In this document: one piece after another, positions 13,189 to 39,391 of the stretch | Layout: each line of letters opens with the position of its first letter | Position numbering within the stretch: the first letter of the stretch is position 1 | NCBI GenBank assembly: GCA_007375535.1 | Contig: VMEM01000002.1 | Location: 20,265 to 84,264, forward strand | Length of the DNA: 64,000 bases | From: Parcubacteria group bacterium LiPW_41 | GTDB lineage: Bacteria > Patescibacteriota > Minisyncoccia > UBA6257 > GWB1-50-10 | Reading direction: 5' to 3' | Program-made: the position numbers and the translations under genes | The notes under the pieces: model-generated | Seen by the model: the letters and a program-made list of their open reading frames with translations, nothing else | Database searches by the model: none | What the model was told of the DNA's origin: nothing

Positions 13189-14454
13189 ATGGAATTGATA
13201 CCAAAGACTGAACACATTTTTTCTGTTTCGGAATATATTGAGTTTCTTAATGAATATTTAAAACCAACAGAAAACATCATTCAGGGAGAAGTTGGAGAAA
13301 AGATTAGTAAATATCCGAATTTTACCTTTTTTAATCTTATTGATACAAAAGACAAAACCTCGATTCAGTGTTTTGTTGTTTCACATGTGTTGCGTTCTTT
13401 GGGGGGTGAGTTGTCTCCCGGTATGGAGATTCGAGTTGAGGGGAGAGCCTCCATATTTAAAAAAAACGGAGGGTTAAACATTCAGGTTTCTCGAATAATT
13501 CCTGTTGGAGAGGGGGCATTAAAACAGCAGTTTGAAATTCTTTTTAAAAAGCTTCGCACTGAGGGATACTTTGAAGTTGAAAGAAAGAAAAAGATTCCAA
13601 GATTTGTAAGTAATATTGGACTTATTACTTCAAAGGTGGGAAGAGGAGCAAAAAAAGACTTTGAAACGAATTTAGGTAAATTTGATTTTAAAATTGTTTT
13701 TTTCCCTTCGAAGGTTGAGGGTGCTTTTGCGGTAAAGGAGCTCGTTAATGGGATCGAGTTTTTAAATAGAGAATATCCCATGCTTCAAGTAATTGTTATT
13801 ACGCGTGGCGGTGGGAGTTGGGAGAGTTTGCAAGCATTTAATTCTGAGGAGCTTGTGAAAGCGATTGCGGCGTCGAGTATCCCTGTTATTTGTGCTGTTG
13901 GGCATGAGGATGATGTAACCCTTGCAGATTATGTTGCCGATATTCGTGTATCTACTCCAACACATGCTGCAAAATTGCTTTCAGACCCCTGGGCTCGTGC
14001 TGAGGAAAATATAATACACACACAAAACTTTTTGAATTCTCAAATGGGGAGAAGAATACAGATTATAGAAACTCTATTTTCGAGGTTTGAAAAAGATGTT
14101 CCAACAAAAATGAGAGAACAGATTCTTTTTTTGTTTAATTCATTTACTCGTCCTTTGATGTATGCGTCTGGAAAAATGCAAGGAATGCGAGAACAGATCG
14201 ATCACTTGTATTCGATACTTTCAATGAAAATAGGGGACTCTATTTCTCGTATAAATATTCGAATTAATTCATATGAGAAAACAATGGCGCTTACAAGTCC
14301 GGAACTAAAACTACGTCAGGGATATTCAATTACGCGTGATGGACTTGGAAATGTAATTAAAGATATTGGAAAGTTAAAAAAAGGAGATACAATTAATACA
14401 CAGTTTTCAAAAGGGTCGATTGATGCGTCGATAAAAGAAATAAAAAATGACTGA
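13189..14454 (+). CDS. xseA: exodeoxyribonuclease VII large subunit
   Basis: N-terminal OB fold, then the catalytic block VITRGGGSWESLQAFNSEELVKAIAASSIPVICAVGHEDDVTLADYVADIRVSTPTHAA. Confidence 0.85.
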   Translation: MELIPKTEHIFSVSEYIEFLNEYLKPTENIIQGEVGEKISKYPNFTFFNLIDTKDKTSIQCFVVSHVLRSLGGELSPGMEIRVEGRASIFKKNGGLNIQVSRIIPVGEGALKQQFEILFKKLRTEGYFEVERKKKIPRFVSNIGLITSKVGRGAKKDFETNLGKFDFKIVFFPSKVEGAFAVKELVNGIEFLNREYPMLQVIVITRGGGSWESLQAFNSEELVKAIAASSIPVICAVGHEDDVTLADYVADIRVSTPTHAAKLLSDPWARAEENIIHTQNFLNSQMGRRIQIIETLFSRFEKDVPTKMREQILFLFNSFTRPLMYASGKMQGMREQIDHLYSILSMKIGDSISRINIRINSYEKTMALTSPELKLRQGYSITRDGLGNVIKDIGKLKKGDTINTQFSKGSIDASIKEIKND

Positions 14455-14650
14455 AAAAAAATTTAGTTTTGGAGAAGCATATAAAGAGATTGAGGAGATT
14501 GGGGAATGGTTTCAAAAGGATACTATAGATCTTGATGAAGCAATAAAGAAGTATGAGCGTGGACTTATTCTTATTGCAAAGTGTAAGGAGCGTCTCAAAG
14601 AGACTGAAAACAAACTCAAGGAAATACAGACAAAATATAGCGAAGAGTAG
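14447..14650 (+). CDS. xseB: exodeoxyribonuclease VII small subunit
   Basis: A 67 aa helical protein that overlaps the xseA stop (ATGA). The FGEAYKEIEEI...LDEAIKKYERG pattern matches XseB. Confidence 0.75.
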   Translation: MTEKKFSFGEAYKEIEEIGEWFQKDTIDLDEAIKKYERGLILIAKCKERLKETENKLKEIQTKYSEE

Positions 14651-14676
14651 TGTTTTGTCTTGTTTTAAAAAATCGT

Positions 14677-14705
14677 TTGCTTGTTTTTATGCTTTGTTGT
14701 ATAAT
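14677..14705 (+). promoter_or_regulatory. sigma70-like promoter (TTGCTT, 17 nt spacer, TG-extended TATAAT) driving a long leader
   Basis: ttgctt gtttttatgctttgttg tataat; the TG-extended -10 sits at about 14700-14705. Confidence 0.55.
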
Positions 14706-15021
14706 GCAATTAAAGGTTGAGCCACTAAATCACATTTACCTTTATGCATTACATATGTAATGGCGAATGCGGAGAAATCCGTACCGAAGAGGGTGTCTGT
14801 GAAGAACAGGATTGCTCGCTCTATGGAGAGGAACTCATTCCTTGCAATTGCAAAGATGGGACTCATACTCTAGAAAGTGGCATCTAGGTTGTTCGCCTTT
14901 AAAAGAAGTAGGTTCTCAATTGTGTTTCATACGGTGCGTTGGTCAAGTAGGATTTGGGCGCGCATTACGAGGACCAAGCGAGTGGTCGCCCTACTTTATG
15001 TATTATGTACATAACGCACAA
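14706..15021 (+). ncRNA. candidate structured 5' leader / cis-regulatory RNA upstream of the RRM protein gene
   Basis: About 310 nt between the promoter and the ATG, markedly more GC-rich than the surrounding DNA. It contains several stable hairpins, including cattac-tat-gtaatg, cgga-GAAA-tccg, and a long interrupted stem gtagg/tgggcg...cgccc/tac enclosing acca-agcgag-tggt. No SD precedes the ATG. Confidence 0.4.
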
Positions 15022-15321
15022 ATGAGATTGTATATAGGAGGTTTGCCGTACGCAACAACTGATGCTGAACTTCGCGAAGCTTTCGAGAAGGCAGGAGCAG
15101 TTACCAGTGCAACGGTAATGCGCGATAAGTTCACAGGACGATCCCGAGGGTTCGGTTTTGTTGAAATGAGCGAAGAGGACGGACCTAAAGCGATTGAAAT
15201 GTGGAACGATAAGGACTTCGGTGGACGTACACTTCAAGTAAATGAAGCACGCCCAATGAGTGAACAGCGTCCTCCACGTCATGACTTTCAGCGCCGTGAC
15301 TTCCATCGTCGAGACTACTAA
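15022..15321 (+). CDS. RNA-binding protein with a single RRM domain and an R/D-rich tail
   Basis: RNP2 (LYIGGL) and RNP1 (RGFGFVEM). The N-terminal 70 codons of the six-frame ORF call are rejected as untranslated leader. Confidence 0.8.
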   Translation: MRLYIGGLPYATTDAELREAFEKAGAVTSATVMRDKFTGRSRGFGFVEMSEEDGPKAIEMWNDKDFGGRTLQVNEARPMSEQRPPRHDFQRRDFHRRDY

Positions 15322-15343
15322 TTAGTTATTAGTTACGATTATG

Positions 15344-15378
15344 GATCCCCATCTGTTTAACAGGTGGGGATTTTTATT
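15344..15378 (+). terminator. rho-independent terminator
   Basis: gatccccatctg-ttta-acaggtgggga followed by a T-run. Confidence 0.6.
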
Positions 15379-15400
15379 TTTTATTCTATAATTCAGGTAT

Positions 15401-18386: not shown

Positions 18387-18458
18387 GAGGAAATAGCTCA
18401 GTTGGGAGAGCAACGCACTTTTACTGCGTGGTCGGTGGTTCGATTCCTCCTTTCCTCA
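18387..18458 (+). tRNA. tRNA-Lys (anticodon TTT)
   Basis: Cloverleaf folded by hand. Acceptor gaggaaa/tttcctc, D-stem gctc/gagc, anticodon stem acgca/tgcgt with loop cTTTTac, T-loop ttcgatt and A73. There is one U-U mismatch in the T-stem and no encoded CCA. Confidence 0.75.
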
Positions 18459-18462
18459 CGAT

Positions 18463-18535
18463 GCGGGAGTAGCTCAGTTGGTAGAGTACTGCCCTCGAAA
18501 GGCAGTGGTCGAAGGTTCGAGTCCTTTCTCCCGCT
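18463..18535 (+). tRNA. tRNA with anticodon CGA (nominally Ser) but class-I architecture and U73
   Basis: Acceptor gcgggag/ctcccgc, D-stem gctc/gagt, anticodon stem ctgcc/ggcag with loop ctCGAaa, 5-nt variable loop, and T-arm gaagg-ttcgagt-ccttt. Confidence 0.65.
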
Positions 18536-37659: not shown

Positions 37660-39150
<1,491 letters not shown>

Positions 39151-39391
39151 ACACTTAAGTCGTAAAAAACTTTAATTTTTTAAAATGATGTGTATAACAG
39201 TTCGCTGTACGCGATCAATCGAGTAATCGAGGAAATCAACGCAGAAGGAATGATGCATACTATCGAGAGGTGTTAGCCGATAAACCTCAAATATGTCTCG
39301 GCTACGAATATGGTAAATGTCTAATTGGTTTATTATGTTCGGTGGGACGACCAAGAAAGTACTTGAAATGAATTTATTTTTATCTTTAATA

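Follow-up and report, generated by a model that had tools for sequence, protein, structure and literature searches.

Organization of the locus

The interval 14677-15021 of a 64-kb window from Parcubacteria group bacterium LiPW_41 (the window being the whole stretch of DNA analyzed) lies directly ahead of a gene encoding an RNA-binding protein with an RRM domain. It had been described in an original prediction as one promoter followed by a single GC-rich, structured leader of about 310 nt. Our analysis shows that the interval is composite, consisting of a promoter, a 47-codon gene and a 93-nt structured RNA, and is not one leader (Table 1). Judged from sequence comparison, the 93-nt element (14905-14997) is a member of a previously uncatalogued family of probably cis-regulatory leaders, linked to RRM genes of Candidatus Paceibacterota and other bacteria of the Candidate Phyla Radiation (CPR) within the flanks searched. 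The conserved open reading frame (ORF) of 47 codons had been overlooked, and it had not been seen that conserved RNA structure is confined to the 93 nt.

An identity profile against the related locus L002 and other relatives divides the interval into parts with very different behaviour. The promoter is identical to that of L002 at 26/29 positions (90%) and its flanking spacers at 42-61%; it is also conserved in L128 while the flanks diverge, and because this conservation exceeds that of the flanking spacers, its function as a promoter is supported. The least conserved segment (42% identity) is 14867-14904, comprising the variable C-terminal tail of the ORF and the spacer behind it. The RNA element starts 17 nt past the stop codon of the small gene and ends 24 nt ahead of the RRM ATG; L128, L129 and L001 show almost no differences within it, and L002 shares 73% identity.

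Table 1. Coordinates of the features at the locus (positions in the window).
Feature	Position	Strand	Remarks
xseA	13189-14454		upstream of the interval
xseB	14447-14650		upstream of the interval
Sigma70-like promoter	14677-14705	+	-35 TTGCTT 14677-14682, 17-nt spacer, -10 TATAAT 14700-14705
Gene for 47-aa Cys/His-rich mini-protein	14744-14887	+	MHYICNGECGEIRTEEGVCEEQDCSLYGEELIPCNCKDGTHTLESGI; stop TAG 14885-14887
Structured leader RNA element of the RRM mRNA, 93 nt	14905-14997	+	covariance model R1, 45.5 bits
P1 5' strand	14905-14912	+	GAAGUAGG; pairs with 14990-14997
J1/2 (UU) and pyrimidine-rich P2 5' strand	14913-14925	+	UUCUCAAUUGUGU; CUC and UUG pair with 14975-14982, forming P2
Internal second AAGUAGG copy	14945-14951	+	read from the sequence; retained in L002
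P2 3' strand	14975-14982	+	CAAGCGAG; purine-rich; pairs with the P2 5' strand
J2/1 UGGUCGC	14983-14989	+	holds GGUCG 14984-14988, unpaired in the P1/P2 fold
P1 3' strand	14990-14997	+	CCUACUUU; pairs with 14905-14912
Translation initiation region GCACAA-A-UGAGA	15016-15027	+	AUG 15022-15024, no Shine-Dalgarno (SD) sequence
RRM-domain RNA-binding protein gene, 99 aa	15022-15321	+	Pfam RRM_1, E = 2.5e-19; homologues
Intrinsic terminator after the RRM gene	15343-15373		terminator scan

The promoter has the sequence given in the original prediction, including the 17-nt spacer and a perfect -10 hexamer. The TG directly abuts the -10 hexamer (TGTATAAT) and does not make the canonical TGnTATAAT of an extended -10, and the -35 hexamer matches TTGACA at only 3/6 positions, which is why this promoter is missing from the list produced by a consensus scan. 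The 5' half of the proposed leader being a coding gene, the promoter therefore most directly serves that gene. Scanning revealed no internal promoter between the small ORF and the RNA motif (by eye only weak TTTAAA-like matches are seen) and no terminator between 14650 and 15022, the only one being located after the RRM gene. Since neither a terminator nor a recognizable promoter follows the small gene, transcription most likely runs on into the leader and the RRM gene, and the two genes are probably co-transcribed in this lineage.

A conserved gene for a small Cys/His-rich protein

When 1.84 billion representative proteins were searched exhaustively with HMMER, 137 homologue clusters of the 47-aa product were returned at E<=1e-3, nearly all of them 46-90 aa long and matching over the N-terminal ~45 residues, with the family consensus MxHYICxGECGGVSxxPGxCxxxxCSxxGxxLxxCxCxDGxH. 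Residues H2, C5, C19, C24, C34 and C36 are invariant in 26 sequences; when 59 sequences are considered, C5, G7, C19 and C24 remain invariant and H2, C9, C34, C36, D38 and H41 are conserved in at least 90%. Differences with respect to L002 fall 4/5/17 on the three codon positions over 41 codons, 16 codons being changed synonymously and 6 non-synonymously, and homologues are called as genes in L128, L129 and L118-L123. On the basis of this homologue family, the bias of substitutions among codon positions and the gene calls in other genomes we conclude that 14744-14887 is a real protein-coding gene.

All homologues found in a second database (58/58) are annotated as hypothetical or left unnamed, and those assigned to a named organism come from Roizmanbacteria, Parcubacteria or the "Patescibacteria group", that is, from CPR taxa. 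Neither Pfam, NCBIfam nor the PDB sequences contain a match, and a Foldseek comparison of the confident AlphaFold2 model (mean predicted local distance difference test score, pLDDT, 82.6) with the PDB gave no structural analogue. The invariant Cys and His residues indicate that the mini-protein is probably metal-binding.

A functional link between the mini-protein and the RRM gene was considered and rejected, as the homologues in three other genomes sit in unrelated neighbourhoods; for the same reason, the adjacency of both genes looks lineage-specific. In one Parcubacteria contig (L120/L121, 1-157 and 2501-2665) a homologue lies ~2.3 kb downstream of a gene for a cold-shock-domain protein, which parallels the situation in the window, where the mini-protein gene precedes the gene of another small RNA-binding protein of stress type; this proximity is probably a coincidence.

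Structure and covariation of the leader RNA

In its P1/P2 fold the element consists of two helices that leave the pentamer GGUCG unpaired. Minimum free energy (MFE) folds of 10 single loci recover both P1 and P2 and place GGUCG in a 3'-side bulge or junction, and the pentamer is found with column counts of G22, G25, U25, C23 and G22 among 25 RRM-linked matches (88-100%), making it a candidate protein-recognition site. For the four closest leader variants, a mini-hairpin of the form GCGA-GUGG-UCGC is possible as well.

Covariation was evaluated on a MAFFT alignment of 23 seed sequences. P1 is paired in 88% of cases across 23-25 sequences, with UA/AU/CG exchanges at its outer pair and AU/GC exchanges at its inner pair, while all five modelled P2 pairs display changes on both sides. 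The structure as a whole is 79-80% paired, compared with 42-48% when the 3' partners are slid, and the observed covariation score was reached by none of 500 shuffles (0/500 with the MAFFT alignment; model-fitted alignments agree).

Because the alignment register blurs P2, we also compared the pairing of the two ends of each motif within the same locus with that of ends taken from different loci. For the complete 5' and 3' ends the energies were -11.85 and -8.45 kcal/mol, respectively; for P1 alone -4.48 kcal/mol (cognate) versus -2.94 kcal/mol (non-cognate), and for P2 alone -6.50 versus -3.87 kcal/mol, with 0/20000 permutations reaching the cognate value in each of the three comparisons. Helices P1 and P2 thus both covary. 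An automatic script for finding P1 was too noisy and was discarded in favor of curated boundaries.

The internal AAGUAGG copy could provide a second partner for the P1 3' strand. Interior segments pair with this strand at -7.60 kcal/mol when cognate and at -6.76 kcal/mol otherwise, a difference matched by 298/20000 permutations, so that pairing of the internal copy in place of the 5' copy is only suggestive.

A family of leaders upstream of RRM genes

When the leader was compared by BLAST with 37 RRM loci, the ends of 14905-14997 were found to recur in distant genomes; GUAGGUUUCUCAA and GAGUGGUCGCCCUAC, for example, occur in L004 and in L016, a metagenome-assembled genome (MAG) of Saccharibacteria. 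About 30 loci of low GC and CPR-like character, drawn from genomes as well as metagenomes, share a common architecture ahead of their RRM genes; the metagenome loci carry no taxonomy and were assigned a CPR origin from their low GC and their similarity to named MAGs. The architecture opens with the P1 5' strand and one to three U, continues with the 5' strand of P2, rich in pyrimidines (UUCUC or UUUCC), and, past a variable core, with its purine-rich 3' partner, and closes with GGUCG, one further nucleotide and the 3' strand of P1. P1 appears in several versions, its 5' strand being GUAAG, GUAGG, AUGUA, CGCAAG or others with the matching 3' strands CUUAC, CCUAC, UACAU, CUUGCG or others. The core varies from roughly 5 to 110 nt and the complete motifs span 40-149 nt; the spacer between motif and ATG measures about 15 to 38 nt (59-104 nt in a few loci), is A/U-rich and in most cases lacks an SD. 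In nearly all loci other than that of the window, a TATAAT-like -10 ends 6-13 nt before P1, so that the element would form the 5' end of the mRNA.

A covariance model, R1, was built from the 23 seeds and searched against 409 kb, in which noise starts at 17.6 bits. The match of 45.5 bits at 14905-14997 is the sole one above noise in the 64 kb of the window, and all matches of at least 20 bits are on the + strand, directly upstream of RRM genes (within the 409 kb, which comprise only small flanks of the other genomes). A model necessarily recognizes the seeds it was made from; seven additional RRM loci of CPR were therefore retrieved via protein look-ups. Four of these (L124, L125, L127 and L130) scored 22-28 bits; L131 and L132 gave 18 bits, a score at noise level, yet the match is at the expected site with all features visible, and L126 (10.5 bits) carries a weak, divergent version. 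R1 matched neither L100-L117 (18 loci, for the most part high-GC RRM loci from outside CPR) nor three small-protein loci.

The loci L007-L010 and L012 carry a variant of the Saccharibacteria/Nomurabacteria type, which shares UUUCUCAA and GGUCG, has a compensated P1 (GUCU/AGAC) and contains an extra hairpin. By inspection and MFE folds only, we place this variant in the leader family.

The Rfam scan proposed in the original prediction gave no relevant family, either at the gathering threshold or at E<=10. With Rfam 15 (4227 models) the whole window yielded only the 16S rRNA and 3 tRNAs at the gathering threshold, and 14600-15100 only 3 chance-level eukaryotic matches at E<=10; in 17 CPR loci only tRNAs were found at the gathering threshold, in 7 CPR loci nothing overlapped the motif at E<=1, and 20 RRM loci outside CPR produced nothing relevant. 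No leader motif for CPR RRM genes is described in Rfam 15 or in the literature searched, subscription journals aside.

A second conserved leader was noticed about 150 nt upstream of each of a group of high-GC, beta-proteobacteria-like RRM genes (L075, L086, L088, L089, L095, L099, L101, L103, L112, L113 and L116). Its layout is GGUCAGUUUCGC ... GGGRCUCCAUCGC ... AGGAGUCCC followed by the ATG; pairing of GGGACUCC with GGAGUCCC, which holds the SD, would be possible, and no Rfam family matched this leader at the gathering threshold; it may represent a second uncatalogued RRM-gene leader.

Predicted pairing of the leader with the start region

Reading of the sequence confirmed the earlier statement that no SD precedes the ATG at 15022. 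The P2 5' strand (14914-14925, UCUCA-A-UUGUGU) is complementary to the translation initiation region at 15016-15027, with which it can form 11 bp interrupted by one A-A mismatch and covering the AUG. When 14905-15040 is folded as a whole, the MFE amounts to -37.3 kcal/mol as compared with -32.9 kcal/mol for the two halves folded apart (ddG -4.4), and this full MFE structure contains the start-sequestering helix instead of P2; in the partition function of the same segment, the U and the G of the AUG are paired with a probability >0.98. RNAalifold, too, predicts the UUGUGU / RCACAA pairing.

In the window, start-region pairing as low in energy was obtained with 32/2000 shuffled start regions. 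Over 34 loci, the duplex between leader and start region has -12.76 kcal/mol for cognate and -10.32 kcal/mol for permuted combinations (0/20000 permutations), and the expected number of leader-to-start pairs is 5.8 in cognate sequences versus 3.1 in chimeras (Mann-Whitney p = 0.008). In L061 the leader and the start region are complementary over 21 contiguous base pairs. The Saccharibacteria-type variant shows complementarity (-20 to -27 kcal/mol) between the conserved GCCGUAUUGAGGAAG, its P2 3' strand, and UUUCUCAAU-AUG-GC at the start codon, with UUUUUUCUCAAGG, a copy on the 5' side, as a competitor for the GCCGUAUUGAGGAAG strand. P2 and a helix sequestering the start would thus exclude one another in many members, as would be expected of a translational switch.

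From promoter to ATG, the same five loci (L007-L010 and L012) present three copies of one register, namely UUUUUUCUCAAGGAGG on the 5' side, GCCGUAUUGAGGAAG in the center and UUUCUCAAU immediately ahead of the AUG; the copy in the center is able to pair with the one on either side, and within UUUUUUCUCAAGGAGG, at the 5' terminus of the mRNA, there is a perfect SD-like AAGGAGG. When the window RNA adopts the start-sequestering fold, GGUC pairs with GACC within 14969-14988 (GACCA/UGGUC hairpin, 14972-14987); the putative recognition pentamer would therefore be hidden in that state.

Genomic context

The closest matches to the RRM protein come from Candidatus Paceibacterota MAGs (96% and 90% identity), and the order xseA, xseB, small gene, RRM gene is kept in L128 and L129. 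A gene for a PD-(D/E)XK nuclease is found downstream of the RRM gene and its terminator, with a TATAAT at 15388-15393, only 7 nt ahead of the nuclease ATG (15401); such a layout is of leaderless type and agrees with what had been said of the neighbouring genes.

On the + strand, a 169-aa ORF (14812-15321) starts from a TTG at 14812 and continues in frame into the RRM gene, and a public protein entry of 154 aa (P0175) extends likewise across the leader RNA. An N-terminally extended RRM protein was nevertheless rejected: the homologues begin with M-x-KLYVGG, at the M of 15022, and indels break the frame upstream of it in L002, so we regard both the ORF and the entry as over-extended calls.

The Rfam scan also located a complete bacterial 16S rRNA gene at 37662-39155 and three tRNA genes (coordinates listed are 18387-18535 and 29713-29796), and there was no 23S or 5S match anywhere in the 64 kb. 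Unlinked rRNA genes are common in CPR genomes.

Relation to known leader RNAs

The E. coli cspA 5' untranslated region (UTR) is a cold-shock thermosensor that is also autoregulated and changes the access to the start codon through alternative folds. Both this UTR and the CPR element are long leaders of mRNAs for small stress proteins that bind nucleic acids. They differ in the protein fold (cold-shock domain versus RRM) and in the invariant unpaired pentamer, which only the CPR leader possesses; the Rfam cspA model did not match the window at the gathering threshold nor 14600-15100 at E<=10. Among eukaryotes, the U1A protein regulates its own pre-mRNA, blocking polyadenylation through a 3' UTR element with a loop of the AUUGCAC type. 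There, an RRM protein binds a short conserved single-stranded site in an asymmetric internal loop between two helices, a geometry in which GGUCG is also displayed here; the location in a eukaryotic 3' UTR and the loop sequence are different, and the resemblance is one of architecture only. The leaders of ribosomal proteins and other RNA-binding proteins, as a general class, are likewise gene-specific 5' leaders with conserved unpaired nucleotides and covarying helices that compete with ribosome access, and none of the Rfam leader families matches the CPR element. This element fits a known functional kind, the cis-regulatory leader on the mRNA of an RNA-binding protein, and matches none of the Rfam families tested.

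Two bacterial cases are closer in their gene association. The Chlorobi-RRM motif (RF01697; Weinberg et al. 2010, PMC2864571) is a conserved structured RNA candidate that was found upstream of RRM genes within one phylum and was classed by its discoverers as probably cis-regulatory and not a riboswitch. It shares the association with RRM genes, but its phylum is Chlorobi and not CPR, and RF01697 had no match in the window at E<=10, in 17 CPR loci at the gathering threshold or in 7 loci at E<=1. In Bacteroides thetaiotaomicron, rbpA, rbpB and rbpC encode single-RRM proteins and possess 5' UTRs of 122-155 nt; reporter fusions showed feedback repression by the RRM proteins that is partly post-transcriptional or exerted via the 5' UTR. 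Expression of these genes is induced by cold, and a role as thermosensor is brought up by the authors (PMC13370968, a 2026 preprint). In the Bacteroides UTRs feedback has thus been shown and no RNA motif or structure is reported, whereas the CPR element has a structure and covariation defined by sequence comparison; we found no homology between them.

Proposed mechanism and alternative explanations

The two folds described above could constitute a two-state translational switch. In the motif fold, P1 and P2 would hold GGUCG unpaired in an internal loop or junction and leave the start codon free; in the alternative fold, pairing of 14914-14925 with 15016-15027 would hide the SD-less AUG. The RRM protein would set the balance between both states as a negative feedback, binding single-stranded GGUCG or U-rich elements. 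We infer both the direction of the switch and the identity of its effector. The RRM protein appears the most likely effector because GGUCG is invariant yet unpaired, because of the single strands rich in U, because the motif is linked exclusively to RRM genes in the flanks searched and because of the precedent from Bacteroides, and we conjecture that GGUCG is what it binds. All in all, the joint reading of a composite locus with a new RRM-leader family, a two-state translational switch and likely feedback by the RRM protein is the one that we favor, and we hold it to be somewhat probable.

Several observations weigh against this reading. The seeds of the alignment were picked by eye, P2 is only 68% paired in the alignments, where its register shifts between sequences, and the thermodynamic z-scores are weak (-1.4 for the 93-nt motif and -1.3 for 314 nt). 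When compared with random 25-mers of the window, the pairing of the window start region is not significant (363/3000), and only about half of the 34 loci reach 5 or more expected start-region pairs. As for the changes relative to L002, one in the window, from U-G to U-A, is consistent with the start-region helix, but the other, from AGA to CGA, is disruptive. The Saccharibacteria-type variant escaped detection by R1. In the window and in its close relatives, the place next to the promoter is taken by the small gene, so that the motif does not form the transcript 5' end.

The view that the whole of 14706-15021 is one non-coding structured leader, a riboswitch or a small RNA draws on the raised GC across the stretch and on the many hairpins that can be drawn in it; we now give it hardly any credence. 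The description of the stretch as far more GC-rich was overstated, since it has 43.7% GC against 37.6% for the window of this low-GC CPR bacterium (top 8% of 316-nt windows), and the rise comes from the coding sequence (45%) and from the 93-nt RNA element (50.5%, the 16S rRNA having 52%). Nor did the multiple stable hairpins hold up as a sign of a highly structured leader: the MFE of the 314 nt is -88.6 kcal/mol (z = -1.33), 9/100 shuffles fold equally well, and folding of the whole leader on both strands is not better than that of shuffles. The folding and covariation check that had been suggested thus came out differently for the two lengths, the 310-nt fold staying at the level of shuffles and 14905-14997 displaying covariation among relatives. 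A GNRA-capped stem does exist, CGGA-GAAA-UCCG at about 14769-14780, but inside the small ORF and not in leader RNA. Selection at the protein level on 14744-14887, with its large family of homologues, and the low conservation of the spacer between ORF and motif also oppose a single leader. As to a riboswitch, no riboswitch class matches, the linkage is to RRM genes only and not to metabolic genes, and the conserved core consists of 5 unpaired nucleotides and short U runs, whereas a riboswitch would be expected to serve one metabolic or transport pathway and to have a conserved ligand pocket; an independent small RNA would call for a terminator of its own, and none lies between the element and the RRM gene or elsewhere in 14650-15022, nor does any small RNA family match. 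What stands of the leader interpretation concerns the last ~117 nt only: a conserved structured element tied to RRM genes in many relatives is indeed consistent with an autoregulatory leader, of about 93 nt and not about 310.

For the 93-nt element itself, the main rival is a temperature switch independent of any protein, similar to that of cspA, which would make the RRM protein cold-induced; we judge it unlikely though by no means negligible. According to this explanation the motif fold forms co-transcriptionally with the start open and persists in the cold, and warmth leads to the more stable start-sequestering fold; this agrees with the existence of two mutually exclusive folds and with the 4.4 kcal/mol by which, in the window, the sequestering fold is favored. 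Temperature sensing and protein feedback are both known for cspA, and a temperature switch could likewise coexist with protein feedback here. Cold induction of the Bacteroides RRM proteins, whose long 5' UTRs the authors ask about as thermosensors (PMC13370968), points in the same direction, as does the 5' UTR of cyanobacterial rbpA1, implicated in the accumulation of its transcript at low temperature in a statement of PMC4152365 that refers to Ehira et al. 2005. However, a pure thermometer needs no invariant unpaired pentamer, and since GGUCG is conserved at 88-100% while the helices vary freely, a sequence-specific partner is suggested. An element for mRNA stability or processing, whose P1 stem blocks 5'-end-dependent RNases or marks the site at which the RRM mRNA is freed from the bicistronic transcript, is improbable in our estimation. 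It would explain why nearly all other loci have P1 at the start of the mRNA, so close behind the -10, and in the window, where the motif follows a gene without a visible promoter, a cut at P1 would restore the usual 5' end; yet a generic protective stem would not be limited to RRM genes, and it has no need for GGUCG, for a covarying P2 or for complementarity to its own start codon. The inverted repeats might finally be a DNA operator for a transcription factor at the RRM promoter, which the motif adjoins in most loci, but there is next to no likelihood of this: depending on the locus, about 30 to 135 nt separate the P1 strands, the motif of the window is 200 nt from the promoter, G-U pairs are tolerated, and the scores are strand-specific (in L042, for example, 47.9 bits on the + strand versus 13.2 bits on the - strand). 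Both the tolerance of G-U and the dependence of the model scores on the strand suggest that the element acts as RNA and not as DNA.

Returning to feedback by the RRM protein, its most specific form is that the GGUCG loop is the cognate element of the single-RRM proteins of CPR, the leader and its protein making up a self-contained feedback circuit, possibly responsive to cold or stress, which flips between the folds with open and sequestered start codon. We put this forward tentatively, as a possibility with less than an even chance.

Significance

For genome annotation, the locus illustrates that gene callers over-extend the RRM ORF across the leader, as in the 154-aa entry and the 169-aa ORF, and that a conserved 47-aa Cys-rich protein family is easily taken for non-coding RNA in AT-rich genomes.

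Hardly any member of the CPR, or Patescibacteria, has been cultivated, and little is understood of bacterial RRM proteins. A leader with two helices, an invariant pentamer and a predicted start-codon switch offers a concrete hypothesis that can be tested in vitro without a culture. If GGUCG is indeed the cognate element of these proteins, it would be the first RNA target of any bacterial RRM protein to be defined at the sequence level, and the same model could be used to seek its trans regulon in CPR genomes.

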